A stretch of DNA of 64,000 nucleotides, taken from the IMG/VR virus record IMGVR_UViG_3300025413_001414, positions 14,699 to 78,698 of that record; one strand, given 5' to 3'. Below, piece after piece: positions 8,925 through 64,000 of this stretch. The translations under genes were made by a program, and so were the position numbers. Under the pieces are notes generated by a model. That model worked only from the letters and a program-made list of their open reading frames with translations, did no database searches and was not told the DNA's origin. How positions within the stretch are numbered: position 1 is the first letter of the stretch; each line of letters starts with the position of its first letter. Source of the stretch: a virus.

Positions 8925-9224
8925 ATGTACAACCTATTTACTGAAAAAGACATATTAGATTATTTAATGACTTCTGATTTCAACGAAGGATTAACAAAAG
9001 AGGAATCAAAGTTTTTACTTTTAAAGTATAGGAATTTTTATAGAAATGCTTATTCAAGATATGAACATTTCAAAAATCTGTCAGAAGATTTAAATAAGGA
9101 TTTAGATAAAAAAAATCTTGAATTAGAAAAGTTAAATAAACAATTATCAAAAATTCAAGAGGATTTGGAAAAGGAAAAAAACAGAAAACTAACCTGGAAA
9201 GAAAGATTCAGAGGAAAAAAATGA
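8925..9224 (+). CDS. Coiled-coil hypothetical protein
   Basis: ORF with heptad pattern. Confidence 0.6.
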   Translation: MYNLFTEKDILDYLMTSDFNEGLTKEESKFLLLKYRNFYRNAYSRYEHFKNLSEDLNKDLDKKNLELEKLNKQLSKIQEDLEKEKNRKLTWKERFRGKK

Positions 9225-9451
9225 ACACACAATTTAATACAGGTCAAGTAGTTTATTATGTTACTGGTGCTACTACAGCAACAGTTCATGATCCAGGATC
9301 AACTGAAACTCATATAATGTATTTCAATGGTAAAGGTTTAGCTGCTCATTTTGTTAAAAATTATGAAATAATCGATTATCAAGAATATCTATCTAATCAA
9401 AGAGATGATAAAATAAATTCAATCATAAATGAATACAAGAATCTATCCTAA
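9221..9451 (+). CDS. Hypothetical protein with C-terminal RDDKINSII tag
   Basis: ORF, overlapping start/stop. Confidence 0.6.
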   Translation: MNTQFNTGQVVYYVTGATTATVHDPGSTETHIMYFNGKGLAAHFVKNYEIIDYQEYLSNQRDDKINSIINEYKNLS

Positions 9452-9659
9452 GGAATCATTTGATAAAGCTGTTAGACAATATGAGGTAAGAACTACAATT
9501 TGCCCAAGATGTTATTCAAAGGATCTTAGATTAGTTGATTCTAGATTTGCCTGGGTTAATGATTTTGAATGTATAAAATGTGATCATAAATTTAATAAAG
9601 AACAATCACTAACTGTTGAATCTCTTAGAAATAAAAAAATTGATGATATATTAAAATGA
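9429..9659 (+). CDS. Zn-ribbon protein with C-terminal RNKKIDDIL tag
   Basis: CPRC...CIKC. Confidence 0.6.
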   Translation: MNTRIYPKESFDKAVRQYEVRTTICPRCYSKDLRLVDSRFAWVNDFECIKCDHKFNKEQSLTVESLRNKKIDDILK

Positions 9660-10483
9660 TTTTAAAAAGTCCTTTAAATTATAGTGGTAGTAAAGACAAA
9701 ATTATTACACAACTAATTAAATATTTTCCCAAAAAAGAAGATGTGAATACTTTTTATGATGTGTTTGCAGGTGGTTTATCAGTTACTATCAATACTGACT
9801 ACAACAAATATATTTCTAATGATATTATCAATCCTTTAATAGAGTTTTATGAAATTTTACAAACAGCATCAATAACAGACAAAATAGATTCTGAAATTGA
9901 AAAAATTGTTAGTTTTAAGATTAATAAAGAATCACAAGAGGAATTTCTTAGAGTAAGAGAACGTTTTAATGAAAGTTATGATCCATATTTATTTTTTTCT
10001 TTGGTTTCATCTTGCACTAATAATTTAATGAGATTTAATCAAAAATTTAAATTTAATCAAACATTTGGTAAAAGAACTATAAATGATAACACTATTCAAA
10101 AATTAAAAGAATATTGTAACGTCTTAAAAAATAAAAATATTCAATTTACTAATCATCATTTTAGTAATTTATTTCAAATACATCCACCTAAACAAGGTGA
10201 CTTTATTTATTTGGATCCACCTTATTATCATATAACCTCTGCTGGATATAATGCTTTTTGGAAAAAACAGGATGAAGAATATTTACATCAAATATTAGAT
10301 TCACTTGATAGTAATGGAATTAGATTTGCATTAAGTGGTGTTTCAAAACACAAAGGAAAAGATAATCCATACATGAACAGAATAAATAAATATAAAGTAA
10401 TTAAGATTGAACACGATTATGAAAAAGTAGCTAAAAAGAAAGATTTAGGAGAAACGCAAGAGATTTTGGTTATAAATTATTAA
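9656..10483 (+). CDS. D12-class (Dam-like) N6-adenine DNA methyltransferase
   Basis: SPLNYSGSK, DVFAGG, DPPY. Confidence 0.9.
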   Translation: MILKSPLNYSGSKDKIITQLIKYFPKKEDVNTFYDVFAGGLSVTINTDYNKYISNDIINPLIEFYEILQTASITDKIDSEIEKIVSFKINKESQEEFLRVRERFNESYDPYLFFSLVSSCTNNLMRFNQKFKFNQTFGKRTINDNTIQKLKEYCNVLKNKNIQFTNHHFSNLFQIHPPKQGDFIYLDPPYYHITSAGYNAFWKKQDEEYLHQILDSLDSNGIRFALSGVSKHKGKDNPYMNRINKYKVIKIEHDYEKVAKKKDLGETQEILVINY

Positions 10484-10509
10484 TATATAATAAAAAATAA
10501 ATTACTTTT

Positions 10510-11058: not shown

Positions 11059-11063
11059 ATATT

Positions 11064-11087: not shown

Positions 11088-11120
11088 GTATATATAACCA
11101 TATAAAAAATAAAAATTTTT

Positions 11121-11953: not shown

Positions 11954-12172
11954 TTATCTAAGAATTTTATTAATTAAATCATCTCTTTTTTCGGTTAAAA
12001 TAACAGATTTGTAGTCATTTATAGAAACTAAGTCTTCCTCGTTGAATAGACCTTCATGTAAATTTTCGGTAGCCCAAACACAGTCACACAAACCATCTTC
12101 TTTACATTCCACTACTCTCATTTTATTACCACCAGTATTTTTGATAACTAAATCTCCTGGTTTAAATTTCAT
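11954..12172 (-). CDS. DUF2158/YodC-like small beta-barrel protein
   Basis: FKPGDLV..KNTGGNKM.V...C.W. Confidence 0.6.
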   Translation of the reverse strand: MKFKPGDLVIKNTGGNKMRVVECKEDGLCDCVWATENLHEGLFNEEDLVSINDYKSVILTEKRDDLINKILR

Positions 12173-12743: not shown

Positions 12744-12766
<23 letters not shown>

Positions 12767-12971
12767 ATAATTTAATTTTATTTTCTCTTATCATATCTTT
12801 AGTTAAATCAGCTCTTCTATATTGCTCAGCACAATAGTAACATCTGGATCCTTGAAATTGGTAATGAAGACCGAATGTATAAGAACAGTCTTCGCAGTAA
12901 TGTAATCCACAAGTATCACAAACCCATTCAGGCTCCACATTCTCGGTATAACAAATATAACAATGTATCAT
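12744..12971 (-). CDS. Cys-rich Zn-finger protein
   Basis: Four CxxC pairs. Confidence 0.6.
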
Positions 12972-16496: not shown

Positions 16497-18512
16497 TTAA
16501 TTATATATATCTTTAATTATTTTATCTAATATTTCAAACCTATCATATTGGTGAACAATTGCGTAAACTTCACCACTTTGATTCACTATTTGATTATCTT
16601 TATTAATCGAGATAAAATTAGTTTGACCTAAAGTAGATATTTCCTTAGTATTATTATAGTGTTCTTTTACTTTATCTGGAAATGCATTTGAATAGTAAAT
16701 AGGAATTGCTTGTTCGACTACAAAGGAGTTATCACCAGTATCAAGTGAGGATTTTTCAATAATTAATTGAATAAAGAATTCCAAAAAGGGCATTATTTCG
16801 TTTCTATTACCAGCTATAATACCACCATTTAATATAGGTCTATCTTTAACTTTTTCAAAATATTCATCTCCATAAACTCTTTTGATCCAAGTTGTATTAA
16901 TCCAACAATTACCAATTGTGTTATCTTCCATACCAAAATGAACAACTCTTTCTTTAAAATAGTTGAAAGGATTATCTTGAAATATAACATCTCTAGAATC
17001 TACTAATAATATATTTTCATATTGTAGATAATTATCTAATACTATTTTATAATAGAAAGGTCTTAGATTATTAATTGTATTTAGCTTCAGTTGAATATAT
17101 TCTGGCTTAATCAATTGATTAATTATATCTATATTGACTGAGTAATCAATTTGTATAGGTTCATATGATAATACCATCAAAGTTCCTTTAAAATTAACTC
17201 TTTCTAAACTTTTAATAAACGGTCTAATCATTTCTGATGTATAGTTTATAGCAACAGTTAGTATTAAATCTTTTTTCATTTCTTTTTTATATACCCAACA
17301 TCCTTGAAAATCTTGAATATCTTTTACATCAAAAGATTCATGAACTGCCTTTGTTACACCTTCTAACCCAATAGGCCCAATTCCACCCGGTGGGACGTAA
17401 GGTCCATAATCATGACCAGCAATAATACCACCAACTTTAACTTTAGGTAACCAATGCTCAATATCTTCTTTAACACTCTCATAGGAGTGGTCTCCATCTA
17501 TGAAAACAAAATCTAAGGACTCATCTTCATATAATTTAGATGCTGATACAGAAGTTGATCGTATTGGATTGATAATATACTTAACTGGTTTAATATTCTT
17601 TAGAAACTCAATATATAACCCATCTTTGTTGCTTAATAAAGGTTCAAACCACGGACTATAAGGGTCTCTATGCACATCGGCCCCATCCCAAGTATCAACA
17701 CAGTCGAACTGTATCTTTTTTCCTGAGTTATGTATCTCTACAGCCATATAAGCTGAGCTTCTACCTTTCCACGACCCAACCTCTACAAAGTGGCTTCCTT
17801 CTGGAAATTGTTTGACCATACTTGAGTATAGATCAGGGTAGGTAAACCAGTCCTCTCCTAAATTTTGATAAAAGTGTTCCATCTTTTTATTTATGAATAG
17901 TATATTTTTTTGGTGTAGATTAGTATATGTATTTACTAATTCATCTAATGTCTCTGCCTCTTTAAATCCCAATTCGTCCATGAACTTACAAACCTCATCA
18001 TACAATGGAGAACCCTGATTATAAGGAGTCATAGATACTTCTAATAATATCCCTTTAGCTCTACTACATATATTTCTACCACCTGTTATTATATCTAATT
18101 CAGAACCTTGTGTATCTAACTTTATTAAATCAAATTCCTCGTTTAAGATATCATCTAGTTTGACTCCTTTCTTTTTGATAATATTAATCTTATCATCAGA
18201 ATACCAATCTGTCAACTCTCTATATATAGAATTACCAGTTGAGATTGGATTATTAGTTGTATAAAAATCATATTCTGAATTATCTTTAGCTAATAAACCT
18301 ATATAGTAAGAATTGGTAAGTTTTTTGAGGTGTATTTCACATTCTTCTGAAGCTTCTACCGAGAATATGTAGGCATCAGGAAACTGTTCTTTAGCGAAGT
18401 AATGAAATTGTCCAATATTTGCACCTATATCTAATATTCTATTTGGGTAGAAATACTTTTTGATAGGGGTTAAGTCAGTGCTATCTTCTTTTTTATATTG
18501 ACTAAACTCCAT
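16497..18512 (-). CDS. Tri-domain FkbM methyltransferase / class I methyltransferase / glycosyltransferase-like fusion
   Basis: LDIGANIG..KLDTQGSE; VEVGSWKG..FIDGDHSYE; DSRDVIFQ..HQYDR. Confidence 0.8.
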   Translation of the reverse strand: MEFSQYKKEDSTDLTPIKKYFYPNRILDIGANIGQFHYFAKEQFPDAYIFSVEASEECEIHLKKLTNSYYIGLLAKDNSEYDFYTTNNPISTGNSIYRELTDWYSDDKINIIKKKGVKLDDILNEEFDLIKLDTQGSELDIITGGRNICSRAKGILLEVSMTPYNQGSPLYDEVCKFMDELGFKEAETLDELVNTYTNLHQKNILFINKKMEHFYQNLGEDWFTYPDLYSSMVKQFPEGSHFVEVGSWKGRSSAYMAVEIHNSGKKIQFDCVDTWDGADVHRDPYSPWFEPLLSNKDGLYIEFLKNIKPVKYIINPIRSTSVSASKLYEDESLDFVFIDGDHSYESVKEDIEHWLPKVKVGGIIAGHDYGPYVPPGGIGPIGLEGVTKAVHESFDVKDIQDFQGCWVYKKEMKKDLILTVAINYTSEMIRPFIKSLERVNFKGTLMVLSYEPIQIDYSVNIDIINQLIKPEYIQLKLNTINNLRPFYYKIVLDNYLQYENILLVDSRDVIFQDNPFNYFKERVVHFGMEDNTIGNCWINTTWIKRVYGDEYFEKVKDRPILNGGIIAGNRNEIMPFLEFFIQLIIEKSSLDTGDNSFVVEQAIPIYYSNAFPDKVKEHYNNTKEISTLGQTNFISINKDNQIVNQSGEVYAIVHQYDRFEILDKIIKDIYN

Positions 18513-18611: not shown

Positions 18612-19745
18612 TTACTTGGTTGGTTTATTGATTCGTTTGATATTAACGAGAACATCTTTGAACGAAATCATAAACTTCTTAATCTTCGGATCTGACACGT
18701 CAGGAACGTTATCGAGAACGTGTAACAGATAAGCCGTCAATTCATCATCACCGACCCTCTTCAAGAACTTGGTAACATTGTCGATTTGTTTATCAGACAA
18801 TTTCTTGATATCGTACTCCTTCAATGATTGGATCAATTCAGAGTTTTTATCACGATTATACTTATCCAATTCTTTTACTACAGTGTCGTAACGGTCAATA
18901 ATATCTTGGATAGTGATATTAATCATTTCTTGACAATATTGTAAGAAACGTTGAGCGCCGTTACCAATGTAAGAGTGTGCGATGTTCTGTAGAACTGGCA
19001 AGAATGCCTTTGGAGACGAATCTTTACCGAAATTGTTACAAATAAAGTCACTCAAGAATGTCCAAGAACGAGGCGTTGCGTAAGCCTTAGTACTTTCAGT
19101 TGGGGCTTGATACAACTTTTCAGGGTAGTTCTTGATGTAGGAAACTACAATCGGGTGAACTTTATCCTTAGCGAAGTTATCAATCCATTCATCAGCACCT
19201 AAAGTATGTGAATAGTGAATCAAACGGTTATTAAGAGCGTTGTCGAATTCTTCAACATCAGTACCATCTTCATCACCAAGGTTACCACTGGACATCATCA
19301 ATACGGTATCATTGAATTTGAACTCAGTACCGATTTGACGTTCAAGAAGAATTTGAAGAGCCGCGTTACGAACTGGTAGAGAAGCACGATTCAATTCTTC
19401 AAAGTGAATAATCGTAGGTTGTTTGTTAGCCTCAATAGCCCAACGAGGAACTACGAAGTCAAGACATTTAACACCCGAAACATCACTGACACTAGGATAA
19501 AGACCTACGTCGGTTTCGTCAACCATTGAAAGTCGAATATCCATATATCTAAATCCTATTTTTTCAGCAATTGAACGTGAAATTGCTGATTTTGCAATAC
19601 CAGGTTTAGAAGTAATGTAAAGAACACCGGATTTAGGCCACATTACCATGAAGTAAAGACGTTCACGTTCAGTAAGAGCGTTCATCTTGGCCATAAATTC
19701 TTGTGGTAGACCTGCTTTTGTATCTTTGTTTTCTGCCATAATCAT
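18612..19745 (-). CDS. MoxR-like AAA+ ATPase
   Basis: SKPGIAKS Walker A, IIHFEELNRA, NAALQILLER, ATPRSW. Confidence 0.85.
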   Translation of the reverse strand: MIMAENKDTKAGLPQEFMAKMNALTERERLYFMVMWPKSGVLYITSKPGIAKSAISRSIAEKIGFRYMDIRLSMVDETDVGLYPSVSDVSGVKCLDFVVPRWAIEANKQPTIIHFEELNRASLPVRNAALQILLERQIGTEFKFNDTVLMMSSGNLGDEDGTDVEEFDNALNNRLIHYSHTLGADEWIDNFAKDKVHPIVVSYIKNYPEKLYQAPTESTKAYATPRSWTFLSDFICNNFGKDSSPKAFLPVLQNIAHSYIGNGAQRFLQYCQEMINITIQDIIDRYDTVVKELDKYNRDKNSELIQSLKEYDIKKLSDKQIDNVTKFLKRVGDDELTAYLLHVLDNVPDVSDPKIKKFMISFKDVLVNIKRINKPTK

Positions 19746-25423: not shown

Positions 25424-25759
25424 TTACATTGAAAATGAATTTCCGCATCCACAAACACGAGAAGCTTGTGGATTGATCCATTCAAAACCTCTACCATTTA
25501 ACCCATCAGAGTAATTTAATTCGGTTCCCCACAAATATAATAAAGATTTTTTATCAACTAAAACTTTAAGCCCGCCATCAACATCAAAAACTTCATCAAC
25601 TCCTTCCTGAATTTTATCATCAAAATCCATGGTATAGCTCAAGCCACTGCAGCCCCCACCCTTCACTCCGACTCTGAGGTGGTGTGTATCTGGTGTGATT
25701 CCTTCTTTCATCATTAATTCTATGATATGTTCTAAAGCTTGATTTGTAACGGTTATCAT
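25424..25759 (-). CDS. iscA: Fe-S cluster A-type carrier (IscA/HesB)
   Basis: GGGCSGLSY, CGCGNSF. Confidence 0.93.
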   Translation of the reverse strand: MITVTNQALEHIIELMMKEGITPDTHHLRVGVKGGGCSGLSYTMDFDDKIQEGVDEVFDVDGGLKVLVDKKSLLYLWGTELNYSDGLNGRGFEWINPQASRVCGCGNSFSM

Positions 25760-26070
25760 AATATTTGATTTAATTTTTGTTCTCTAATATATGATTGATA
25801 TTTACTAACTGTATCATTACAATACTTTGAGGTAAATTTCATATCATATTTTATAATATATTTATAATTCTTTTGCTTTTTAAAGAAGCTGTCGTAAAAG
25901 TGTCTCTCTAATTCTTCGATTAATTCACAATTATAAAAAATAAAATGTCTTTCAGAGTGCTTAGAATATTTTATAATTTGTGGAATATCTATTTTTTCAT
26001 TGACAATTATATGCAACAATCCACCATCAAATGTCACATTTACTATCACTATTTCATTTTTAAAACTCAT
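25756..26070 (-). CDS. Hypothetical with C-terminal REQKLNQIL tag
   Basis: ORF. Confidence 0.55.
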   Translation of the reverse strand: MSFKNEIVIVNVTFDGGLLHIIVNEKIDIPQIIKYSKHSERHFIFYNCELIEELERHFYDSFFKKQKNYKYIIKYDMKFTSKYCNDTVSKYQSYIREQKLNQIL

Positions 26071-29870: not shown

Positions 29871-30563
29871 TTAAATTAATATTTTTTCAATCTTTTCATT
29901 CCTTAACTCAGCCATATCTATATCCCAATCACGTAAATAAGAGTGAGGTAGATGATCCCTAAATGATGGTATGAGTTTAGTCCAACGCTCATCTAAAGAT
30001 GAATATTCAAATCTTGCATTAAAGATAAATGAATGATATGGTATCTCAAAATCTTTATAAAAATCATCTAAGAAATTAACAAACTCTTCCAATATTTTTT
30101 GTTCTGAATCATAGTTTTCATTTTCATCATCAACCAATCCCAATTGACTATTTGGAGTATAAAAAGTTACTTCATCACGAACATCATCTAAGACATGTGA
30201 ATTACCAAAAGGTCTTTTATAACACATCATAATTGCATTATCTTTATAATCATCAAAGTCAAGGTATAAAAAACGAAGTAATCCCATATGATAATCCTTG
30301 ATATTATGTTTATCTAAAGTGGATTGAGAGGGTTTACCTATCATACTAATGAACTGCATGCAAACAAATAAACGAGAGAGTTCTTCTATGTCTTTAATAT
30401 GCGGATTATCTGATAGCTTCCAAACAAGTTGAGGACTATAATAGCTTGATTCTGATTTGCTAGAGACCAAACTATTTATCTTCTCAATATCACTATCTGT
30501 AATAGAGAATTTTTGGTCTTTGACCAGTCCGTAATTTCCGTAAAAATAAGCTGAATTATACAT
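29871..30563 (-). CDS. Hypothetical with C-terminal RNEKIEKIL tag
   Basis: ORF. Confidence 0.6.
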   Translation of the reverse strand: MYNSAYFYGNYGLVKDQKFSITDSDIEKINSLVSSKSESSYYSPQLVWKLSDNPHIKDIEELSRLFVCMQFISMIGKPSQSTLDKHNIKDYHMGLLRFLYLDFDDYKDNAIMMCYKRPFGNSHVLDDVRDEVTFYTPNSQLGLVDDENENYDSEQKILEEFVNFLDDFYKDFEIPYHSFIFNARFEYSSLDERWTKLIPSFRDHLPHSYLRDWDIDMAELRNEKIEKILI

Positions 30564-30801: not shown

Positions 30802-30831
30802 AAAAAATAGGAACCGAAGTTCCTATTTTTT
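30802..30831. terminator. Intrinsic terminator
   Basis: AAAAAATAGGAAC-CGAA-GTTCCTATTTTTT. Confidence 0.8.
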
Positions 30832-38643: not shown

Positions 38644-38927
38644 TATTCTTCTAATAGTTTTGATAAAACGTATTCACGGTATTCTTGAGCCCCAACAGAT
38701 CCAAGTGAATAGGCTCGTCTGAAAAAAACCTCAAATATATTTTCATTACCAATTTCTTTAGCAGCAATAGCACGATTGATACATTTATATTCATCGGTGA
38801 TTAGACTTGCTTGCTTTTGTGCTAAGTGTCTTTCCGTATCAACATTTCCATCTGACTTGGAAATAATATCTCTAACACGCTTATAGTTTTTTTCAAATTC
38901 TGATTTTGATTGACCACGTATCGGCAT
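38643..38927 (-). CDS. Hypothetical protein
   Basis: ORF ending YREYVLSKLLEE. Confidence 0.55.
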   Translation of the reverse strand: MPIRGQSKSEFEKNYKRVRDIISKSDGNVDTERHLAQKQASLITDEYKCINRAIAAKEIGNENIFEVFFRRAYSLGSVGAQEYREYVLSKLLEE

Positions 38928-39790: not shown

Positions 39791-40013
39791 ATAGTGACGA
39801 TTATACCCGCGGTTCTGTTTTATTCTATCATTTATCTCACCTTTCGGTGGCCTATTAAGGCTGCCTCAACCCGACTATCGTTGGGAAACCGACACCCTAA
39901 GTCTGTATGAGTTGCTACTTCTTTGGTCTAACGACTGATTAGGTCTTCCAAATTAGGTTTTGTAGCCGCGAAGTTCCTCTAGCATTTGCCAGCGATAGAT
40001 CATCCATCACTAT
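39791..40013 (-). ncRNA. rnpB: Minimised RNase P RNA
   Basis: P1 AUAGUGAUGGAU/AUCGUCACUAU; P2 UCUAUC/GAUAGA; P3 CUGGCA/UGCUAG; CR-I GAGGAACUUCGCGG pairing with CR-V ACAGAACCGCGGG (P4); CACC-GAAA-GGUG; AGAUAAAUG CR-IV-like. Confidence 0.8.
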
Positions 40014-40477
40014 GTTAATATTTCTAAATTCAATTCTCTTTTAAACTTTTGTTTATACTCACCAATAAATTCCTCTAAAAGTGGGTGAATATGTGGATAT
40101 ATTTCTTCACGAATATTATCAACATCACCAATATACTCTTTGAATAATTTTAAAATTCTATTAGGTGTATTTGGTATAATATTAATTAAACATAAATAGT
40201 TTAAAACCCTTTCTTTTTTAGGATCTAATTTTTTACCACTTTTATTCCATGTGTCCATCCATTCCAATTTTAAAGACATTGCTTTAAAATCAGTAACAAC
40301 TACACTCTGCCACCAATCAGAAAATTCATTATCCCTAATCACTGGATCAAATCCAATCATCTTGGTATATTTTTCCCATATATAATCAATATTGGATCGT
40401 AAGACATATGTATCATTACAAGCCTTATGAAACATTATTGAAAATGTTAATAAGTTATCTACCTGGTCATTATTCAT
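40010..40477 (-). CDS. Hypothetical with C-terminal KRELNLEIL tag, probably leaderless
   Basis: TATATTTG at 40482-89 just upstream of ATG; stop overlaps 5' end of RNase P RNA. Confidence 0.6.
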   Translation of the reverse strand: MNNDQVDNLLTFSIMFHKACNDTYVLRSNIDYIWEKYTKMIGFDPVIRDNEFSDWWQSVVVTDFKAMSLKLEWMDTWNKSGKKLDPKKERVLNYLCLINIIPNTPNRILKLFKEYIGDVDNIREEIYPHIHPLLEEFIGEYKQKFKRELNLEILT

Positions 40478-44054: not shown

Positions 44055-44146
44055 ATATTTAATTTAATTTAATATTTTATTTAATATTTTATTTAATTTT
44101 TTATCTCTAATAATTTGTGCAGTTATATCTCTACAAAGATAAGAAA

Positions 44147-45490
44147 TTATTTTAACTTCTTTTTTAATATTGATAAATCTTCTAAATACATATTTTTAGA
44201 ATCAATTTTACTAAGAGCATCCATTTCTTCTTTCTTAATCTTAAAATCTTCTTTTAATTTTTCAAACATTTCTTTTGTTAAAGACCAGATTGGCATTCTC
44301 AATAAGTAGTCGAAACTATCATCAATTTTATCCAAGCCTAAAGCATCAATATCTTTTATAAGTTTATCCTTTGGAACATTTTTTACCTCTAACTTACCAT
44401 CTAAAATAGCTTTAATAAATCTTGCTCTATTAGATAATATTTTTAATTCATGGTTTAACTTATCTAAAAGATATTGTTTTCTTTTATCATAATAAGTTAA
44501 CCTGAAATTAACAAAGTAGATAAATATATCTTCAATAGAATCAAATATTTTTAACTTACTATTTTCATCCAAAGTAGAGTAGATTTCAGTTTCATATTCT
44601 TCTAATTTAAGAAGTTTTATTAGCTTTTCCTCATCATACTTAGCTAACTGGTCTCGTGTAAATTTAATGGTATAATCTATATTATCCTTACAATTATCAT
44701 CATAAGAGATAATAACCTTCTTTTCAATTAAGTCATCTAAGATTGATTCGTATTTTTCGAAAGTCATTGATGGTGGTAATTCTGTTATCTTAACTGTTGA
44801 TGTATTAACAACTTGAGGCTTTCCTCTGATTATCCATCTTTTTTTATTTTCTTCATCTTGAATATAATCACCATTGAAGAAAGGATTATAGGGTTTAACT
44901 TGAGATATCTTTTTACCTTTTAATAAATTTTCACAAGCTGTAATTGCATCAATTGGATTTCTGTTTAATATATTAGAAGAAAATCCAACTGCGATACCAG
45001 ATGAACCGTTAATTAATACTGTTGGTATAATAGGTAGGAAAAATCTTGGTTCAATTTCTTCTCCTTCTTCTTCTTTATAATCTAGTAATTCAAAGTCTTT
45101 ATAAAGTAGTCTAAAGTTATTATTTAATTTGGTTCCAATATATCTTGGAGCACCTGGTTCAGGTGATCTCAAGGACCCGAATTGACCATCTTCTTCAAGA
45201 AGTGGCATATTGTTTTTGAATTTTTGAGCCATGTTAATAATAGCAGATTCAAGACTTGTGTTACCATGATGATAATAACAATCAGAAGCTACTTTTCCAG
45301 CTAATTGAAATATTTTTAATGGTTTTTCGTTACCCGTTTTCCAAACAGAGTTACTAACGTGAATAATCTTTCTTTGTGAAGGTTTAAGACCATCTATAAC
45401 AGATGGTATGGCTCTATTTTCAATAACATATAATGAAAATTCTTTGTATTCACTTGATAAAAATTCTGTAATTGTTTTTTCTGAATTCAT
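44147..45490 (-). CDS. Type II DNA topoisomerase subunit A (T4 gp52/GyrA-like)
   Basis: RAIPSVIDGLKPSQRK, YHHG, GAPRY active-site Tyr; likely start MNSEK at 45490. Confidence 0.92.
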   Translation of the reverse strand: MNSEKTITEFLSSEYKEFSLYVIENRAIPSVIDGLKPSQRKIIHVSNSVWKTGNEKPLKIFQLAGKVASDCYYHHGNTSLESAIINMAQKFKNNMPLLEEDGQFGSLRSPEPGAPRYIGTKLNNNFRLLYKDFELLDYKEEEGEEIEPRFFLPIIPTVLINGSSGIAVGFSSNILNRNPIDAITACENLLKGKKISQVKPYNPFFNGDYIQDEENKKRWIIRGKPQVVNTSTVKITELPPSMTFEKYESILDDLIEKKVIISYDDNCKDNIDYTIKFTRDQLAKYDEEKLIKLLKLEEYETEIYSTLDENSKLKIFDSIEDIFIYFVNFRLTYYDKRKQYLLDKLNHELKILSNRARFIKAILDGKLEVKNVPKDKLIKDIDALGLDKIDDSFDYLLRMPIWSLTKEMFEKLKEDFKIKKEEMDALSKIDSKNMYLEDLSILKKKLK

Positions 45491-45576
45491 AATGTATATA
45501 TAATAATATTTATTTTTTGTTTTAAAACAGGTATACAATCAGTGATCGAATGGCTTAAAATTTAATATATATATTT

Positions 45577-47406
45577 ATGATAGTAAATGAAAAAATAAGT
45601 ATAAATGTTAATCCAAATTCTAGAATTTATTACAATTCGATTGGATATAGATGTTCTAATTTTGAGAAAATAGAAATTAGAACAATTGATCTACCAAATG
45701 GGTCTAATATTAAAATATTGGTCAGGTGTGATGTTTGTTTTATTGATCAAACAACTAAGTACAATAAATACTTGAAAAACACAAGGAATAATACTATTCT
45801 ATACACCTGCAAAAAATGTTCTTTTATAAAAAATAAAAAAACAAAATTAGAAAAATACGGAAATGAAAATTATCAGAATACAGAAAAAATAAAGAAGACA
45901 AAATTAGAAAAATACGGAGACGAAAACTATACAAATAGAATAAAAGCGAAAAATACATGTATAGAAAAATATGGAGTTGATAATGTATCAAAGTTTGATG
46001 ATATAAAGTTAACTAAAAAGAAAACAAATATTGATAATTGGGGAGTTGATAATGTTTTTAAATCTGAAGAAATTAAGAGTAAAATATCAGAATCGGTTAG
46101 AATTAAATATGGATCAGATAATTATGTTACATCAGATGATTGTAAAAATAAGTATAAAATATTCTGTGAGGAATTAGGTGTTAGTCATTATTCACAGTCT
46201 AAAGAATTTAAAGATAAATTTGAGGAAACATGTTTAGTAAGCTGGGGATATAAGACGAATTTATTAAATAATGATATAAAAAATAAGATAAAGGAGACCA
46301 ATCTTATAAAGTATGGATTTGAGTATCATATGAAAAATGCAAAATATTCAGAATTAACATCAAAAAGAATAACAGAGGGCAGAAATGATTATTATAAAGT
46401 ATTAGGATATGAATTGATAAATTATGATTTTAATAAAAAGGAATATCTACTTAAAAGTATTTCATGTGGTCATGAATTTAAAATAAATCATGATTTATTT
46501 AGAAGTAGGATAAAATATAACAACAGTTCTTGTTTGATATGCTATCCAAAAGATGGGTTAACATCAATAAAAGAATTAGAGCTTGGTAACTTTATTAAAG
46601 AAATATCAAATAATATTATATTAAACTCAAGAGACTTGATTGATGGTAAGGAAATAGATATTTATTTACCAGATCATAAGATAGGAATAGAATTTAATGG
46701 ATTATACTGGCATTCGGATGAATTTAAAGATAAATATTATCATTATAATAAAACAAAATCCTGTTTAGAAAATGGAATATCCTTAATTCATATATGGGAG
46801 GATGACTGGTTAAATAAAAAAGATATAGTTAAATCAATAATTAAAAACAGATTAGGAATAATTGATAATAGAATATATGCCAGAAAATGTAAAATTGAAA
46901 TTGTTACAAACTCAATTAGTAATAAGTTTTTAGACGAAAATCACATTCAAGGTGGGACAAATGCTTCTGTTTGTATTTCATTAAAATATGAAAATGAAAT
47001 AGTATCTATAATGACATTTGGTAAAAGAAGAATAAACTCTAAATTGAACCTGGAACTTGTTAGATTTTGTAATAAGAAAAATACATCAGTCATCGGATCG
47101 GCTTCTAAATTATTCAAACACTTTATTGAAAATAACGAATACGATAAAATAACATCATATTCAGATTTGTCCATTTTTAATGGAGATTTATATGAAAGTC
47201 TTGGATTCAAAAATGACGGCGAAACATCTTTAAATTACTATTGGAGCGATTTAAAAAGAAGATATCATAGATTTAATTTTAACAAAAAGAGACTAATAAA
47301 AATAGGATATGATCCAAATAAGACCGAAGATGAAATTATGAAGAGCATTGGATATATTAAAATATGGTCTTGTGGTCAGGTAAGGTGGATTTTTAATAAG
47401 ATATAA
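45577..47406 (+). mobile_element. KYG-repeat / Vsr-like putative homing endonuclease between topoisomerase genes
   Basis: KYG repeats, GIEFNGLYWHS, IWEDDW. Confidence 0.75.
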
Positions 47407-47520
47407 TTGTTTTTTTACTATTAGAGCACAGTTTAAAATAATCTTTAAAAATTTTTATTAGAGACAAAAAAATTGAAATGTTATTAAGTTAGGATTTAGA
47501 AATTACAAATTTAAAATTTT

Positions 47521-47646
47521 CTATTCTGTTCTTTTTTTGTTTTGCTTCATTATTTTGTTATTTTTAATTGAGTAAATTCTACCAAAATTTGATATTTGAT
47601 ATTCACCATCATATCCTAATATATCTACCCATATTTCTTTTTCCAT
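47521..47646 (-). pseudogene. NUMOD4-motif homing endonuclease remnant (41 aa)
   Basis: MEKEIWVDILGYDGEYQISNFGRIYS. Confidence 0.7.
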
Positions 47647-47813
47647 AAACAAATCTATTATTTATAATATATATTGAAAATTAAAAATGTCAAAAAGGAC
47701 AGAAAAATACACACAATATGAGGATTTTAAATTTATATTAGAAACCAAAATGTTAAATAAATCTAAGATAATAGAGAGCTTAATTAAAAAATGGATTAAA
47801 GAAAATAAATTAA

Positions 47814-49881: not shown

Positions 49882-50597
49882 TAATAGAAAATTTTTTAGA
49901 GTTAGTAGATATAGAAGATATCATATTCAAAGATGAATATGTCAATATGGTAGATATATCAGTTGATGTAGATCAAAGCTTTTTACTATCAAATGGATTG
50001 ATATCACATAATTCAGCCTCCTCGGCTTTTAGAAAATATAGAGATACAAATACACAAGGGGCTTTCTCATTAAGAGGTAAGTTTATTAATGCCGCTGAAA
50101 TTACAAATCAAAAATTAGTTGGTAATAATGAAGTTATTAATTTAATGGGTGCTTTAGGGTTAAAACTTGGTCAGAAAGTTATTCCTGGAACATTAAGATA
50201 TGGAAGAATTTTATTCTATTGTGACCAAGACTATGATGGATATTCAATCGTTGGACTATTAATTAATTTTTTAAATAAATTTTGGCCAGAACTATTTGAG
50301 CACAATATGGTTTATAAGGTAGAAACTCCAATTGTAGTGTGTCAAAACATCAAATCAAAGAAAAAAATTCCGTTCTACTCTCAACAAGATTATAACGATT
50401 GGCTCGAAAAGTCAAATCCAAAAGAATGGGAAATTAAATATAAGAAAGGATTAGCAGCTCTTGTTGATGATGAGTATAGAGAAATTATACACAACCCTAA
50501 TTTAACCAAAATCAAAAGAGATGATATAAGTAGTGAATCTCTAAATATTTGGTTTGGTAAAGAATCTGATTTAAGGAAAACTGAATTATTAAAATGA
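49878..50597 (+). CDS. Split intein C-half (45 aa) plus topoisomerase B C-part (TOPRIM)
   Basis: VDISV...NGLISHN|SASSAF, LRGKFIN, DQDYDG, YKKGL. Confidence 0.92.
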   Translation: MIIENFLELVDIEDIIFKDEYVNMVDISVDVDQSFLLSNGLISHNSASSAFRKYRDTNTQGAFSLRGKFINAAEITNQKLVGNNEVINLMGALGLKLGQKVIPGTLRYGRILFYCDQDYDGYSIVGLLINFLNKFWPELFEHNMVYKVETPIVVCQNIKSKKKIPFYSQQDYNDWLEKSNPKEWEIKYKKGLAALVDDEYREIIHNPNLTKIKRDDISSESLNIWFGKESDLRKTELLK

Positions 50598-50941
50598 TAA
50601 ATGATGTTCAATATCTATATTGTATAAATAAATCTGGAGAAGATTTTATAACCACATCATATACTTACATCAATAGCACAATCACCATTTATAATTTTAA
50701 TCAAGAAATTGATTTCAAGAATGTTGATGCTGTTTGTATAGATTATGCAAATGATCCTTTTGTATCATTTAATAAAAGATATACTAACTCAAATGCACTA
50801 ACTTGTTATAAGATTGAATATGTTGAGCAGGACGAAGATAGAATGACTATAACAATAAAAATAATTGAGCAAATCGACAAAATTGATTTACAAACATATA
50901 AAAGAGATACTAAAATACAATCAATTATAGATGACAAATAA
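50594..50941 (+). CDS. Hypothetical with C-terminal RDTKIQSII tag
   Basis: ORF. Confidence 0.55.
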   Translation: MINDVQYLYCINKSGEDFITTSYTYINSTITIYNFNQEIDFKNVDAVCIDYANDPFVSFNKRYTNSNALTCYKIEYVEQDEDRMTITIKIIEQIDKIDLQTYKRDTKIQSIIDDK

Positions 50942-52272: not shown

Positions 52273-52803
52273 TTAAAAAAGTAAACTTATTTTTATCTCT
52301 CTTTCTAATGAGGAAATATAATTTCTAATATCTTCTCTATCTATAGAGTAGTGTTCTTTATCAACCCAATAATCATAGATTTTTGAGAGGGATATAGATT
52401 TTTGTTTTTGATAGACCTGCTGGAAAATTTCAAAGCACTGATACTTAACTAAATATTGTGCAAGATTTTGTGTAAAATCAAATCCTATTTTTTCAAATCC
52501 ATCAAAAAATTTTGAATCAGTAATATTTTTTAAATATTGTTTTAGATTGTGTTTATGAAACTCTTCTTCTGTGAACTTTTCATCAAAGAATATCAAAGTT
52601 GATTTAAATAAAAAATTAATATTTTTATCAGATAAAATTTTAACTAATTTTAAAACATGTTTTGCTATTTTAATATCTAAGTAAATCCAGATATCATCCT
52701 CTTTTTTAATAAGCATAGGTATCTCAGTGATATAATCTACATAGATTATATTTTTAGATACTATCCATTGGTTGTTCTGTGGTATAATTTTGTATAAATC
52801 CAT
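52273..52803 (-). CDS. Hypothetical with C-terminal REIKISLLF tag
   Basis: ORF. Confidence 0.55.
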   Translation of the reverse strand: MDLYKIIPQNNQWIVSKNIIYVDYITEIPMLIKKEDDIWIYLDIKIAKHVLKLVKILSDKNINFLFKSTLIFFDEKFTEEEFHKHNLKQYLKNITDSKFFDGFEKIGFDFTQNLAQYLVKYQCFEIFQQVYQKQKSISLSKIYDYWVDKEHYSIDREDIRNYISSLEREIKISLLF

Positions 52804-54747: not shown

Positions 54748-55143
54748 ATGGCGTTAAAAAGTAAAAAAGTTAAAAATACATCCAATAGTGTTTTAACCGT
54801 TCAAACCGGAAATAGTATAAACGTTACATCTAGTGGCACCCTGGTTACCTCAGGAACAACTACAGTTAATAGCCCTTGGTATATACCTTCTGGAACAACA
54901 ACAAATGTATTATATTCTATTAACAAAACAAGCTATAATGTTTTAGGAATAGAAATTGAGGTTGAAGGAGAAAGCAATTTTAATGTTGCTTTATGTTTAG
55001 CTTTAATAAATACAAATGGTCTTGAATTTTACATAGAACTAAAAAAACAGGAAATAAGTTTTCCTAATGAAATTGGTGAATATTTAGAATCTGAATTAGT
55101 AAAGTATCTCAGAGATAAAAAAATAGAAGAGGTTATTAAATAA
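54748..55143 (+). CDS. Hypothetical with C-terminal RDKKIEEVI tag
   Basis: ORF. Confidence 0.55.
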   Translation: MALKSKKVKNTSNSVLTVQTGNSINVTSSGTLVTSGTTTVNSPWYIPSGTTTNVLYSINKTSYNVLGIEIEVEGESNFNVALCLALINTNGLEFYIELKKQEISFPNEIGEYLESELVKYLRDKKIEEVIK

Positions 55144-55183: not shown

Positions 55184-56161
55184 ATGATTTTATGCGATTT
55201 AATATTAGACGGCAACTATCTGCTTAATCGCAATGTTTTCAGTCTGCATAAAAATAATCTTTTATTTGGGGCACTTTCTAAAAGCTTAGAAATGTCGGTT
55301 ACAAATTATAAAAAATGGTTTCCCTTTGCTAATATTTATTTTGTATCCGACTCCAGAGAAAAATCTTGGAGAAAAAAAATTAACAAAGATTATAAAGCTA
55401 ATAGAAAAAAGGATAGTGATATAGATTGGGAATTCGTATTTGGTGCTTACTCGGAATTTAAAGAATCCTTACCATACAAAGGAATCAAAGTTTTGGAATC
55501 ACCTCACATTGAGGGTGATGATTTCATTTCTTATATAGTATCAAAATCAAATAATGATAATATTTCCACTTTGATTGTATCAAATGACTATGACATTAAG
55601 CAATTGATTAAATATAACTTAGATCCACTTTATATCAACATTATGTCCAATGAAATGTTAAATAAACAAAAACTATTCTTACCTAAAAACTATCAAATCT
55701 TTTTAACTGAAATTAATAAATTAGAGGATAATGATGATATTTTCAATCTAAATGATAATGTTGAATTTATTAATTTATTATCTAGTTTTATGGAAAAGTA
55801 TGATATACAAGAAGTAGATCCAATTGAATCTTTAATTATTAAATTGATTTCTGGAGATCAAAGTGATAATATATCATCTGTTTGGTCAATTATCAAAAAT
55901 GGTAAAAGACGTGGTATTGGAGAAAAAGGAGCTAAAAGTATTTTTGATAATTACTTAACAGAATTTGGAGATGTTAATTTATCTGACCCAGATTTATTTG
56001 AAAATATAGCTGATTTAATTTGTGAAAAAAAGAATTTAAGTAAAACAACAATATCAGAGATTAAAATTAATATTGAAAAGAATATGAGGTTGATTTATTT
56101 AGATACAAACTCAATGCCACCAGAGGTAAAAAGGAGAATTCAAAATGAATTCAATAAGTAA
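55184..56161 (+). CDS. rnh: RNase H / 5'-3' exonuclease (T4 rnh-like FEN family)
   Basis: ILDGNY, SWRK...YKANR, EGDD, SNDYD, GDQSDNI. Confidence 0.85.
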   Translation: MILCDLILDGNYLLNRNVFSLHKNNLLFGALSKSLEMSVTNYKKWFPFANIYFVSDSREKSWRKKINKDYKANRKKDSDIDWEFVFGAYSEFKESLPYKGIKVLESPHIEGDDFISYIVSKSNNDNISTLIVSNDYDIKQLIKYNLDPLYINIMSNEMLNKQKLFLPKNYQIFLTEINKLEDNDDIFNLNDNVEFINLLSSFMEKYDIQEVDPIESLIIKLISGDQSDNISSVWSIIKNGKRRGIGEKGAKSIFDNYLTEFGDVNLSDPDLFENIADLICEKKNLSKTTISEIKINIEKNMRLIYLDTNSMPPEVKRRIQNEFNK

Positions 56162-56696
56162 ACAATTTGAGGAATGGGTTTTAAGAAATAGAGATAGTAT
56201 TAAAAAATCCTGCTTAAATACGCTTTATGTAGAAAATCGTGTAGGTATCAAAGGAACAGTATTAGAAAAGAAGGTTTCGGTGAATAGTGAAATTATTCAT
56301 AAATGGGGTTCAATTGTCGAAAGTTTTTTTAAAAAAACAAATATTTCTGTTAGAGTTAAACAATATATTTGTTTATATTGTGAAATTCTTCACCTATTCA
56401 GTCAGTCAAGTTATTTTACATTTTTAAATCCGATAGACAAAATTAATATAGATGTAGAGCTTAATGAAATTTATAATAAAATTATTAATGGAAAAATAAG
56501 GTCTAAAATTATTGATAAATATTATAACTACTTAACTGGAGAAACTGAATATCTTTTAGAAGATGGTAGATATGTTCCTATTGATGGAGATAAACATCCT
56601 ATTTTAGAAATTGATTTATCGATTTTACCAACTGAATTACTAATGATTATAGATGATGTTGAATATAGAAACAATAAAATAGACCAACTTATTTAA
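56145..56696 (+). CDS. Hypothetical with C-terminal RNNKIDQLI tag
   Basis: ORF. Confidence 0.55.
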   Translation: MNSISKQFEEWVLRNRDSIKKSCLNTLYVENRVGIKGTVLEKKVSVNSEIIHKWGSIVESFFKKTNISVRVKQYICLYCEILHLFSQSSYFTFLNPIDKINIDVELNEIYNKIINGKIRSKIIDKYYNYLTGETEYLLEDGRYVPIDGDKHPILEIDLSILPTELLMIIDDVEYRNNKIDQLI

Positions 56697-59564: not shown

Positions 59565-59803
59565 AATATTAAAATATACACAAAGATACAAAATTTTTGA
59601 AATATCTGTTGCAGTTTATTATGAAATACTTCAATATCAAAGTCTGCCTCCCTTGCATAGGTAAACTCAAATACTTTAGGCATCATAAAAGTTTCCCTCT
59701 CTAGTTCTCTTAAATCTGAGGCGAACTCAAAATATTGACCTTCAACTGCCTGCATTTTCAAATTTCTAAGATATCTATATGATTTAAGGTATTTATTCTC
59801 CAT
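59561..59803 (-). CDS. Small protein with UVR-like motif
   Basis: AVEGQYFEFASDLRE. Confidence 0.5.
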   Translation of the reverse strand: MENKYLKSYRYLRNLKMQAVEGQYFEFASDLRELERETFMMPKVFEFTYAREADFDIEVFHNKLQQIFQKFCIFVYILIL

Positions 59804-59996
59804 TTAAAATTTTTTTAAGTTTTCTTTCTCTATTATCTTCTACTTTTTCAAAATTCATCTTATGAAACCATCCTGAGGGCCAATTCCAGCTAGTCTGGTC
59901 ATAATCTAAATAGTAGGAATCACCTTCTATATCAATGACTTTATATATTTTATGTTTCACTAAAAATTTTGAACCAGTAATACAAATAACATTCAT
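59793..59996 (-). CDS. Hypothetical with C-terminal RERKLKKIL tag
   Basis: ORF. Confidence 0.55.
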   Translation of the reverse strand: MNVICITGSKFLVKHKIYKVIDIEGDSYYLDYDQTSWNWPSGWFHKMNFEKVEDNRERKLKKILNGE

Positions 59997-61461: not shown

Positions 61462-61758
61462 ATCCCTTCCGAAGCAGCCCTAACGGACTAAACGCCGGTG
61501 AAGAAACTAACCACAGAGTTAAAGGAGTTTTTTCACGGAGTTACACAGCGTTTTTTAGCGAATTAAGCAGCAAGGCTACGGTTGTCAGTAATCTGAATAG
61601 CCCTTTCATTCAAAACAGCTGGTTAGGTGCGATTTATTTGACGCCCCTACCCAGTTTGTAGGTTATCGTTGAAGCATTGTCGTTGTAGGAGCAATCAGGG
61701 AACGTCAGCCCCTATAACGCCAATGCAATGTTAGGCGTAGCGCTTGTTCACGATCTGT

Positions 61759-63573
61759 CTATGCAAACATTGCGATTTGTCCATTACTTACGGGTGTCAT
61801 TTCGCTTAGAAAATTGTCCCACAAGTTCAATGTCAAGCTAAGTTTGTACTTGTCATTTAGCTCATTTAATTCTGTTTCCAAATTTTGCTTGTCGACGGTT
61901 TTTGCTAATTTCAAAAGGTCGATTCTCATTAATACATCTTTTGTAAATGTTCTTTTTGCGTCTGCAAAAGTTACTGATTGCAAAAACTGCATTGTCGTGT
62001 CTGAATTTAAAAGTATCAAAGCATAAACAGCAAATTCTATTTTGTCGAAACCTATCAAATAACAAGTGTCATCAAGCATTACCGGCTTGTCGGCTTGTGG
62101 TAGAATTAGTGTGAAATGAAACGTTTTATAAAGTCCTGATATGGCAACTTTATAGGGTTTAAAAGAGTAGTCCCCAATACCAAAAATTGAAAATAAAGGT
62201 TTGTTGTTATAGATACTTGATTTCCGTGCATCAAAATTTGCCTGATGTTCTGTCAAGTATTGATATGTTTTTGGATAATCGTGTTTTATGTATTTAGTTT
62301 CTTGTCCAACTTTTCGTTGTGTAACGATTGTGAATTTTCTTGTCTGGCTGATGACTGTGTTTTTAAGGTCAGAACTTTTAAGAAGACCATAAACCAAATC
62401 ATCTTCTAATTTCACTTCTTCATTTAAGCCATTTATATAATGTCCGTTTACTTTGTCCAATTCCATTACGCTTGAGCAGTCGTGTTTCAAGCCTTGTCGC
62501 CAAACGAAAGGACATTTGCCATCTATTTTTTTTGTATGAATGTAGGTGTCGATGTTTGAAACAAATTTGTCGTTTAACCAACCAAAACGTAGTTTTTTTC
62601 TTTCTTCTAATCTTCTTTGACTTCTTTTAATTGTTCGTAATTGATTTATTGAGTAAAAATCGAACTCTTCACAATCAAATTCAGGAGTAGCATTTAATTC
62701 ACAATAGAATAAAGAGGCTTCAACGGAAACATTGAATTCTTTCTTGCTGTCAATACAATGCTTTTCGATAGATGCAATGTTGTATTTGTTTTTAGTTTGG
62801 TCGAAAACAATATTCTTAATAACAGAATTTTTAACCAATAAAAGTAAATGTCCTTTCATTTTCTGAAAGGTTTCAAGCATTGTTATGGCAATGAATTCTG
62901 CAATGTCAAAGTTACCTTTGCCTGTCATTGCATCTAAACCGCTATGATTTTTAAAATTAGTCTTCTTGGGTAAGTTAGCTGAATTAAGGCTTCCCAATTT
63001 TGAGTTTGTAACCCACGGCGGATTGCCAATTACTAAAATGTCTTTATCCGAAAATTGCTTTTCAATTTGCTTGAATTCAAAGTCAAAAACATTACAATGA
63101 GCTATAGAAATTACTGGTTTTTTCGTTTCGGGGTTTTCAAGAAAAAAGTCGACAATACTAAATTTGGTCTCCCACACATAAGGTTTGTAAATTTCAATTC
63201 CGAATATGTTTTTGATGTTCTGAAAATTCTTTAAAGATGCGATGATAAAATTGCCTTTTCCACAAGTTGGCTCAACAATGATTGCTGGTGAAATATTTTT
63301 TGAAGCTAAATGTTGCGTTACCTTATTTGCTAAATCTTCATTTGTCTGAAAGTCGCCATATTCAGCCCTGTCAGGCTCTTCAAGTATATTGCAATTATCA
63401 GAAATGACTTCTTTAAGTGTTCCTAAATCTTCATCATTATCAAAAAAATGTTTAATGCCGAAGGCAACAAACATTTTTTGATTGGCTAATTCAAATGATG
63501 AAGTGTTTCTTAAATTCTGATTTAAGAAATCCGAAACTTTATGACTAATATTTGCTTCAAATACTTTCATCAT
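61759..63573 (-). CDS. N6-adenine DNA methyltransferase of a bacterial type II R-M system
   Basis: GDFQT, EPTCGKG, GNPPW. Confidence 0.85.
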   Translation of the reverse strand: MMKVFEANISHKVSDFLNQNLRNTSSFELANQKMFVAFGIKHFFDNDEDLGTLKEVISDNCNILEEPDRAEYGDFQTNEDLANKVTQHLASKNISPAIIVEPTCGKGNFIIASLKNFQNIKNIFGIEIYKPYVWETKFSIVDFFLENPETKKPVISIAHCNVFDFEFKQIEKQFSDKDILVIGNPPWVTNSKLGSLNSANLPKKTNFKNHSGLDAMTGKGNFDIAEFIAITMLETFQKMKGHLLLLVKNSVIKNIVFDQTKNKYNIASIEKHCIDSKKEFNVSVEASLFYCELNATPEFDCEEFDFYSINQLRTIKRSQRRLEERKKLRFGWLNDKFVSNIDTYIHTKKIDGKCPFVWRQGLKHDCSSVMELDKVNGHYINGLNEEVKLEDDLVYGLLKSSDLKNTVISQTRKFTIVTQRKVGQETKYIKHDYPKTYQYLTEHQANFDARKSSIYNNKPLFSIFGIGDYSFKPYKVAISGLYKTFHFTLILPQADKPVMLDDTCYLIGFDKIEFAVYALILLNSDTTMQFLQSVTFADAKRTFTKDVLMRIDLLKLAKTVDKQNLETELNELNDKYKLSLTLNLWDNFLSEMTPVSNGQIAMFA

Positions 63574-63899
63574 TTAGGTTTTTTGTAGCTTACAATTTTT
63601 GAAATGCCTGGAATATCATCAACCAATGCCACAATCCTCTGATATTGTAATCTCCATTGCAAGGCATTGGAAATAGTGAGGTAACCTTGTTCTGGTGGTG
63701 TTTGTAAAATTTGTTCAGCTAATTTGGATAGTGTTATTTCTAATGTATCAATTATATCATTTACACCACCGTGATAATTTTCAACAATAATACCTTGTAA
63801 CCCTTCTTCTTCATAGATTTTAATTTCTTCTATTGCTCTTTCTACCGGAACGACACTTGCTAAGTGTATCATCCCGAATATTGATTTATTAAATTTCAT
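63570..63899 (-). pseudogene. Chimeric ORF: BtpA N-terminus fused to a probable restriction endonuclease C-terminus
   Basis: GMIHL...GIIVENY (BtpA) then GYLTISNALQWRLQY; junction ~63730-63742. Confidence 0.7.
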
Positions 63900-64000
63900 T
63901 TGTAATTTCTTTTATTTTAATATCTCTCATTTTTGATTTATAATCAAGTATATAATCCCGTAAATTTTTACTCAAACTATGTTCAGTATCATATATACCA
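63889..64000 (-). CDS. 3' end of a hypothetical protein with C-terminal RDIKIKEI tag
   Basis: ...ILDYKSKMRDIKIKEITNEI*. Confidence 0.45.
   Translation of the reverse strand, partial: GIYDTEHSLSKNLRDYILDYKSKMRDIKIKEITNEI

Follow-up and report, generated by a model that had tools for sequence, protein, structure and literature searches.

A shared C-terminal tag on many unrelated small proteins in a clade of uncultured huge phages

Several described systems use a C-terminal segment to bring different proteins to one machine. The XB tail of SspB tethers it to the N-domain of ClpX, and the ssrA and MuA types are C-terminal degrons; an ssrA-type degron is recognised through its last 2-3 residues and free alpha-carboxylate, at a fixed distance from the end. 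Clamp-binding tails comprise the PIP-box and the tails of gp43, gp33 and gp55 of phages T4 and RB69. The ankyrin proteins of poxviruses carry a C-terminal PRANC/F-box-like domain, a folded unit of about 40-50 residues that is read by Skp1. Two other targeting segments also bear comparison: the T4 capsid targeting sequence, an N-terminal leader cut by the prohead protease at L/I-x-E, and the membrane helix of the MinD/FtsA type, which has one hydrophobic face and a polar face of net positive charge, and in which acidic residues are not conserved. Here we describe a nine-residue C-terminal tag, R-x-x-K-I-x-x-I-L in outline, on many otherwise unrelated proteins encoded in a 64,000-nucleotide stretch of viral DNA (the window hereafter), which is bases 14699-78698 of the 78.7-kb contig IMGVR_UViG_3300025413_001414. 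Shared docking tails are thus known in principle, but in the literature searched we found no description of this motif, its scale or its clade-wide code.

The window holds 92 open reading frames (ORFs) of at least 45 aa, called greedily. The strict pattern R[DENQRKT]x[KLIEV][ILV]xx[ILV][ILFV] has 13 in-frame matches in them, and 12 of these lie within 8 residues of the stop, where only 4.3% of positions fall (binomial P = 5.6e-16). When residues were shuffled within each protein, the mean number of C-terminal matches was 0.08 (maximum 3 in 2000 trials), and when only the last 25 residues were shuffled it was 0.12; the excess over shuffles, which the initial annotation had proposed to check along with internal controls, is thereby confirmed. 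A position-specific matrix trained on relatives, with its threshold set at an internal false-positive rate of 2e-4 (score 8.0), gives 14 tagged proteins in the window. The tag pattern is real and strongly non-random, and chance is essentially excluded as its source.

The initial annotation had claimed about 16 tagged proteins. Thirteen of its 16 C-terminal copies are present at the ORF ends where it placed them, while the other three (12744, 40010 and ~63900) are weaker, decayed or truncated and probably real, RENKIKLYV and RELNLEIL because their homologues or orthologues bear good tags. Its single N-terminal copy, RDISISVLL (34346-34705), did not hold up: it scores 12.5, but five internal window matches occur at that threshold, which fits chance. 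The tag is absent from core enzymes, as had been stated, except for a borderline segment on a methyltransferase. The copies at window ORF ends are these:

9221-9451, +: 76-aa ORF; RDDKINSII at 9401-9427, 7 residues ahead of the stop; score 18.8
9429-9659, +: 76-aa Zn-ribbon-like ORF; RNKKIDDIL at 9627-9653, then K and stop; score 17.9
11954-12172, -: 72-aa ORF matching phrog_3261 (function unknown); RDDLINKIL at 11960-11986, then R and stop; score 16.3
12744-12971, -: 75-aa Cys-rich ORF; decayed tag RENKIKLYV, score 5.3, under the 8.0 threshold; its homologue in the related record G004 (261549-261800, +) has two tandem tags, RDYKIDYIL then RNEKIKNIL-K
16497-18512, -: 671-aa methyltransferase; borderline RFEILDKII near the end, score 10.8, doubtful as a tag
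25756-26070, -: 104-aa ORF; REQKLNQIL at 25759-25785, adjoining the stop; score 20.0
29871-30563, -: 230-aa ORF downstream of the zincin-vWA gene; RNEKIEKIL at 29877-29903; score 19.2
38230-38643, -: 137-aa ORF; REIGIENLL, then DNSK and stop; score 14.5
38643-38927, -: 94-aa ORF; REYVLSKLL at 38652-38678
38939-39397, -: 152-aa ORF; RNEIINSLF at 38951-38977; score 13.4
40010-40477, -: 155-aa ORF; RELNLEIL, one residue short, with full tags on orthologues
50594-50941, +: 115-aa ORF; RDTKIQSII at 50903-50929; score 14.4
52273-52803, -: 176-aa ORF; REIKISLLF at 52276-52302
54748-55143, +: 131-aa ORF; RDKKIEEVI at 55111-55137
56145-56696, +: 183-aa ORF; RNNKIDQLI at 56667-56693
59793-59996, -: 67-aa ORF; RERKLKKIL at 59805-59831; score 19.6
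63889-64000, -: ORF truncated at the window edge, with only its 3' end present; RDIKIKEIT, tag-like, at 63901-63927; score 16.3

The contig (16% complete per CheckV) is a fragment of an AT-rich, uncultured huge phage: window GC is 25-34%, and the nearest relatives of the contig in the phage collection are uncultured phages of 634-642 kb. A query with the topoisomerase A-subunit gene of the window returned 69 IMG/VR loci (1.26 Mb), in whose 1720 ORFs the strict pattern occurs 152 times at the C-terminus and 29 times internally. The matrix tags 217 of the 1512 distinct proteins in these loci, against 2.7 expected. As a consensus the tags read R-[D>E,K,N,Q]-x-K-[I>L]-[N/K/D/E]-x-[I>L]-[L>I>F], in most cases with 0-2 residues before the stop; among 119 distinct tags, 21 have no trailing residue, 49 have one, 16 have two and 33 have 3-8, and Phe stands at position 9 in 12. 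Six related records were fetched whole and compared with the contig (G000):

G000: this contig; 13.2% of ORFs tagged
G009: 281 kb; 12.3% of ORFs tagged
G004: 385 kb; 10.1% of ORFs tagged
G003 (IMGVR_UViG_3300020045_008999): 597 kb; 5.4% of ORFs tagged by the matrix
G007: 43% GC; 0.4% of ORFs tagged
G006: 50% GC; 0% of ORFs tagged
G008: 31% GC; 0% of ORFs tagged

The tag is restricted to one clade. Since G008 is equally AT-rich and tag-free, AT-richness alone does not create the tag, and a composition artefact is rejected by this relative together with the shuffles.

Once the tag is trimmed off, the bodies form at least 57 families that BLAST does not relate to each other, as the initial annotation had supposed in calling the tag portable, and the same body can occur with or without it: the protein at 36869-38209 and its homologues (family 20) include both tagged and untagged versions. 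Pfam and PHROGs searches of the tagged proteins revealed almost no function, with a Pfam domain in only two of the 57 family representatives (a glycosyltransferase and a Zn ribbon). Loss of the motif among orthologues had been named as a finding that would count against the tag; orthologues nearly always retain it, often as variants outside the strict pattern such as R-[DEH]-I-Q-I-x-x-I-L. In the 52273-52803 family (24 members, about 30% identity) R168 and I170 are two of the six invariant columns, and in the 54748-55143 family R122 and K125 are invariant. Tagged genes are shorter than the others (median lengths of 106-131 aa against 164-193 aa), and they are clustered in G004, G009 and G003, where adjacent pairs are about three times the shuffled expectation; in the short contig G000 clustering is not significant (2 pairs vs 1.5 expected, P = 0.46).

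Selection acts on the peptide. A six-frame scan of the window finds the peptide mostly in frame and at ORF ends, and in the window and its relatives one peptide is written in 127 distinct tag DNAs. Ile, Leu and Val also replace one another within tags. At each tag position the synonymous codons follow genome-wide usage (for Arg, tags vs genome: AGA 75% vs 72%, CGT 10% vs 10%, AGG 9% vs 8%, CGA 5% vs 6%), so it is the peptide, not the DNA, that is under selection.

AlphaFold2 (AF2) models place the tag at the end of a helix. In the model of the 52273-52803 family (pLDDT 88.6, pTM 0.84), the tag makes up the C-terminal half of the last helix, residues 157-175; a Foldseek search of the PDB with this model returned nothing at E <= 0.001, and the protein may be a new fold. 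In the 54748-55143 family the first 56 residues are disordered in the model and are followed by a small domain, whose last helix (107-130) ends in the tag, with pLDDT of about 91 over residues 111-130 and 72 at the final residue. The two families have no detectable sequence similarity, and in both models the tag closes a continuous helix of 19-24 residues with pLDDT of about 86-95. Helical geometry would put Arg1, Lys4, Ile5, Ile8 and Leu9 on one face.

The motif has its own dialect in the 597-kb relative G003. A looser pattern, R-x3-[ILVM]-x2-h-h, finds 81 of 881 ORFs tagged there against 4.5 expected, and the motif takes the form R-[S/I/T]-x-[T/V/I/A]-I-N-[D/E]-I-L-K. Position 2 is D, E or N in 87 of the 101 tags of G000, G004 and G009 but in 11 of the 81 of G003 (P = 4e-24); position 4 is K in 63 of 101 vs 4 of 81 (P = 3e-17), and position 5 is Leu in 37 of 101 vs 3 of 81. 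The change can be followed in single orthologues: REYVLSKLL of ORF 38643-38927 becomes RSYVISKLL in G003, and RNNKIDQLI of ORF 56145-56696 becomes RSLSIEQII. If one shared partner recognises all the tags, dozens of unrelated proteins would be expected to change theirs in concert, as they do.

We propose that the tag is a short linear docking motif, formed by the final 2.5 turns of an alpha-helix at the C-terminus. The conserved face of this helix end would consist of Arg1, Lys4, Ile/Leu5, Ile/Leu8 and Leu/Ile9, with Asp, Glu or Asn at position 2. The huge phages of this clade would place it on about 10% of their proteins, mostly small orphans encoded in clusters, and one common partner gripping the helix would allow all tagged proteins to be handled as one group. 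We infer that a single trans-acting reader exists, and consider a C-terminal helical docking label read by one partner to be slightly better than an even bet. The options for what the reader does include an unfoldase or protease to which the tagged proteins are tethered as adaptors, timed degradation, scaffold assembly and a compartment. Three points weigh against this proposal: (i) no reader was found, and phyletic patterns single out no candidate among the MoxR and zincin-vWA pair, ClpP, the ClpC-like unfoldase and the clamp; (ii) mutual tag-to-tag recognition predicts the same concerted dialect change; (iii) the tag helix is modelled with confidence, and the tag may be partly packed on its own body rather than free. 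The initial annotation had imagined a label that docks accessory proteins onto one hub; the portable, peptide-level label stands, while the hubs it named, the AAA protein at 7851-8909 and MoxR, show no discriminating signal. Its phrase 'genome-wide targeting system' describes the pattern fairly, but only the pattern.

The reader was sought among the products of neighbouring and related genes. Window gene content was annotated by Pfam, apart from the topoisomerase gene, which was recognised in another way (below). The main identified genes are:

18612-19745, -: MoxR-like ATPase, phrog_1297
30830-32350, -: DUF2201_N zincin and vWA-like protein, phrog_1314 (labelled 'HNH endonuclease' there)
44147-45538: topoisomerase II A-subunit-like gene, a T4-like replication gene, identified by sequence motifs and 69 tblastn-confirmed relatives
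55184-56161: FEN/RNase H gene, a T4-like replication gene

Also encoded are several DNA methyltransferases, a CCA/poly(A) polymerase-like gene, a rhomboid gene, four paralogous nucleases and numerous small orphan ORFs. In a distant relative of the clade, two genes identified by eye encode GroES-like and GroEL-like proteins, the latter of 537 aa with the typical Gly-Met-rich end (L060, 4168-6065).

The AAA protein and the MoxR-like protein are present in tag-bearing and absent from tag-free records, as are most genes, and the tag-free records are only 43-83% complete. The AAA protein has no PDB or PHROG relative. For the zincin-vWA protein there was no PDB sequence match, and a query of IMG/VR returned close relatives only; it occurs in every tag-bearing record searched (G001-G005 and G009) and not in the tag-free G006, G007 and G008. 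The MoxR-like protein has homologues in G009 and G003, and G004 ends before that region. A phyletic profile was rejected as a route to the reader, since 29 G004 proteins have counterparts in both G009 and G003 but none in the tag-free records, a set too large to be of use, and the profile is limited by G004 and G009 being partial genomes. CheckV rates these two as 94-95% complete, yet each is without large gene sets found in the other and in G003; completeness estimates for the clade thus look too high and absence calls unsafe.

ClpP occurs in tagged and untagged phages alike, and most members of the clade encode one ClpP paralogue or two. Tagged and untagged relatives also share a ClpC/ClpA-like unfoldase that has two rings but not the usual N-domain (L166-L169; G003 531557-533656); in tag-bearing genomes its N-terminus is extended by an acidic segment of about 45 residues that includes a run of Asp. 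In five related records, four of them 94-98% complete per CheckV, the ClpX zinc finger PF06689 was not found; nor did gp45-slide_C or DNA_pol3_beta_2 match above cut-off in five related records, a search in which a divergent clamp could be missed.

A MoxR and metallopeptidase-vWA pair has been described in jumbo phages, with a proposed role in virion assembly (Iyer et al. 2021, PMC7824862), and vWA domains have been proposed to capture peptides (Kaur et al. 2020, PMC7159879). The window has a gene for each of the two components, but these genes lie 11 kb apart. As an outside test, we compared similarity among C-terminal 15-mers with internal controls, in the related records and in two cultured phages that have the MoxR and zincin-vWA pair. 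The test picks up the tag in G004 and G009 and shows no excess in G006-G008. In G003 it gives 6625 against 4821 and 5137, with a large paralogous family inflating tails and controls. G003 has about 82 paralogous repeat proteins of about 222 aa ending in ..NFxxLIxEIxDGL, nearly a tenth of its ORFs (e.g. 33719, 44928 and 59078). The cultured phage PA5oct shows no shared-tail excess (237 pairs vs 215 and 173 in controls). The Sinorhizobium phage Phosso (PV764938.1) shows an excess of 758 against 329 and 326, which comes from a different tail, F-x4-[DE]-A-M-L-F-K-L-x-W, on at least 14 small proteins (73-160 aa) with 13 BLAST-unrelated bodies (examples at 2896-3189, 96459-96707 and 370098-370349); this tail has only 2 internal matches. 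As Phosso is a cultured huge phage, its tail is experimentally tractable. A link between the MoxR and zincin-vWA pair and shared tails is neither established nor excluded.

The tags might instead recognise each other, pairing as short coiled coils into mixed oligomers or a condensate with no separate reader. The amphipathic helix has hydrophobic residues at i, i+3 and i+4, and the flanking charges could form inter-helix salt bridges; a genome-wide change of dialect is equally expected if tags must match each other, and no separate reader appeared among the candidates examined. However, nine residues with three hydrophobic positions would make a very short zipper, and the invariant Arg, central on the hydrophobic face, would fit a specific pocket more readily than the core of a coiled coil. 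We judge such pairing distinctly unlikely.

Two promoter-like motifs are found upstream of many window genes (e.g. 849, 4431, 8925, 10510, 44147 and 45577). In four related records, (T)TAATATATA precedes 231 of 900 operons, and the Bacteroidota-type TAnnTTTG precedes other operons, with TATATTTG in 88. This suggests a phage-specific and a host-type promoter class, and a host among the Bacteroidota.

The tag could also be a degron, by which one phage or host protease or unfoldase would clear a class of mostly small accessory proteins on schedule. Such a degron falls within the docking-label proposal and takes no share of probability of its own. The clade does encode ClpP, often in two copies, and the ClpC-like unfoldase, and tagged genes are somewhat enriched in host-type TAnnTTTG operons over phage AATATATA operons (12.0% vs 5.3% tagged, P = 5e-4). 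But this promoter-class bias is modest and shrinks among ORFs of at most 200 aa (15.9% vs 10.2%), and both ClpP and the unfoldase also occur in tagless relatives (G006, G007 and PA5oct). With 0-8 residues trailing the tag, recognition does not depend on the free carboxylate as it does for ssrA-type degrons. Degradation as the purpose of the tag strikes us as an outside chance.

Could the tag simply be inherited? Under common descent, the tagged proteins would be diverged paralogues, or would keep an old terminal helix with an intramolecular role (capping or fold stabilisation) and no targeting function. The confident AF2 tag helix, continuous with the body, would fit this, as would the clustering of tagged genes, which tandem paralogues would also show. 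Against it are the absence of detectable similarity among the body families, the differing secondary-structure layouts of the two modelled ones, the occurrence of one body with and without tag and of one protein with two tandem tags, the far better conservation of the tag than of the bodies, and the shift of dialect in step across families. We think this explanation very improbable.

The weakest alternative, a DNA or RNA signal at gene ends (a promoter, terminator, coupling element or recombination site) that is translated incidentally, would draw on the many tagged genes that abut or overlap the next gene and on two perfect copies outside ORFs, but it is rejected by the codon-usage test, and the interchange of Ile, Leu and Val, the 127 DNAs for one peptide, the far smaller number of off-frame than of in-frame C-terminal copies, the presence of tags at convergent gene ends as well (11954 and 29871) and the gene-remnant origin of one of those two copies leave it barely credible and essentially excluded. 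The two copies outside any window ORF are:

44082-44108, -: orphan tag RDKKLNKIL, lacking a start codon, in the gap that separates the topoisomerase A-subunit and rhomboid genes
47460-47486, +: orphan tag RDKKIEMLL with no start codon, six codons (SLKIFI) past an in-frame stop, in an open stretch of 16 codons

The first lies in the -1 frame after the topoisomerase A-subunit gene, behind an in-phase A_AAA_AAG heptamer (within 44147-44200, -), and A_AAA_AAG is a classic -1 slippery site. A programmed -1 frameshift that would add the tag to the topoisomerase subunit was rejected, as 65 of 65 orthologues stop untagged at a ..LKKK[FL]K-type end (the 65 being those whose 3' end falls inside the fetched locus; four loci end within the gene). 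The heptamer stems from the conserved ..LKKK.. ending of the gene, and the closest relative, L001, has an intact 80-aa tagged gene at the position of the orphan tag. Both this intact gene and the untagged orthologue ends make the orphan a gene remnant and not a frameshift signal, and on the sequence comparison the heptamer is probably no frameshift site. The second orphan adjoins homing-endonuclease debris. A truncated, NUMOD4-like N-terminal fragment of a homing endonuclease (47521-47661, -) lies beside it and the 609-aa nuclease gene at 45577-47406, and this part of the window is a graveyard of mobile-element insertions.

Set against the systems described at the outset, the tag resembles the SspB XB tail and the ssrA and MuA degrons in being a short, body-independent C-terminal peptide that would link different proteins to one machine. 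It differs in its predicted helix, continuous with that of the body, whereas the XB peptide ends a flexible linker; in its tolerance of 0-8 trailing residues and its presence on about 10% of the proteome; and in that no ClpX zinc-finger domain was found in the phage records and Clp genes do not track the tag. With the clamp-binding tails it shares the extreme C-terminal position and would share the arrangement of many clients on one hub, and in spacing, polar(2)-hydrophobic(5)-two hydrophobics(8, 9), it is the same as the Q-x-x-h-x-x-a-a of the PIP-box. However, positions 8 and 9 are aliphatic rather than aromatic (Phe at 9 in about 10%), the invariant Arg is without counterpart, and the tagged clients are orphans without recognisable DNA-enzyme domains. 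Two other targeting segments do not fit: the T4 capsid targeting sequence, since the tag is C-terminal and N-terminal and internal matches occur at chance rate, and a MinD/FtsA-type membrane helix, since there are only three hydrophobic positions, with Asp/Glu conserved at 2 and D/E/N frequent at 6 and 7.

The PRANC proteins, in which one viral C-terminal module on many bodies leads to one host machine, would be the closest functional parallel should the tagged proteins be adaptors; the tag differs from that module in being a nine-residue helix end, on bodies that are mutually unrelated. The tagged proteins might then be a large set of fast-evolving viral adaptors whose bodies grip varied host or phage targets while the helix plugs them all into one machine, an unfoldase/protease or else an assembly platform, which we offer as a tentative and rather unlikely refinement of the docking label. 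This, if true, would give bacterial viruses their own equivalent of the poxvirus PRANC/F-box strategy, and the recognition code of the tags would co-evolve in each genome.

For engineering, the tag would offer a small targeting peptide that can be moved between proteins, should its reader turn out to be a protease, scaffold or compartment. The genome-specific dialects amount to a natural co-variation experiment for finding that reader. Huge phages hold hundreds of small orphan genes without known function, and a tag on a tenth of their proteins is a first common handle on them; naming the hub would give a shared pathway to dozens of these proteins in each genome.

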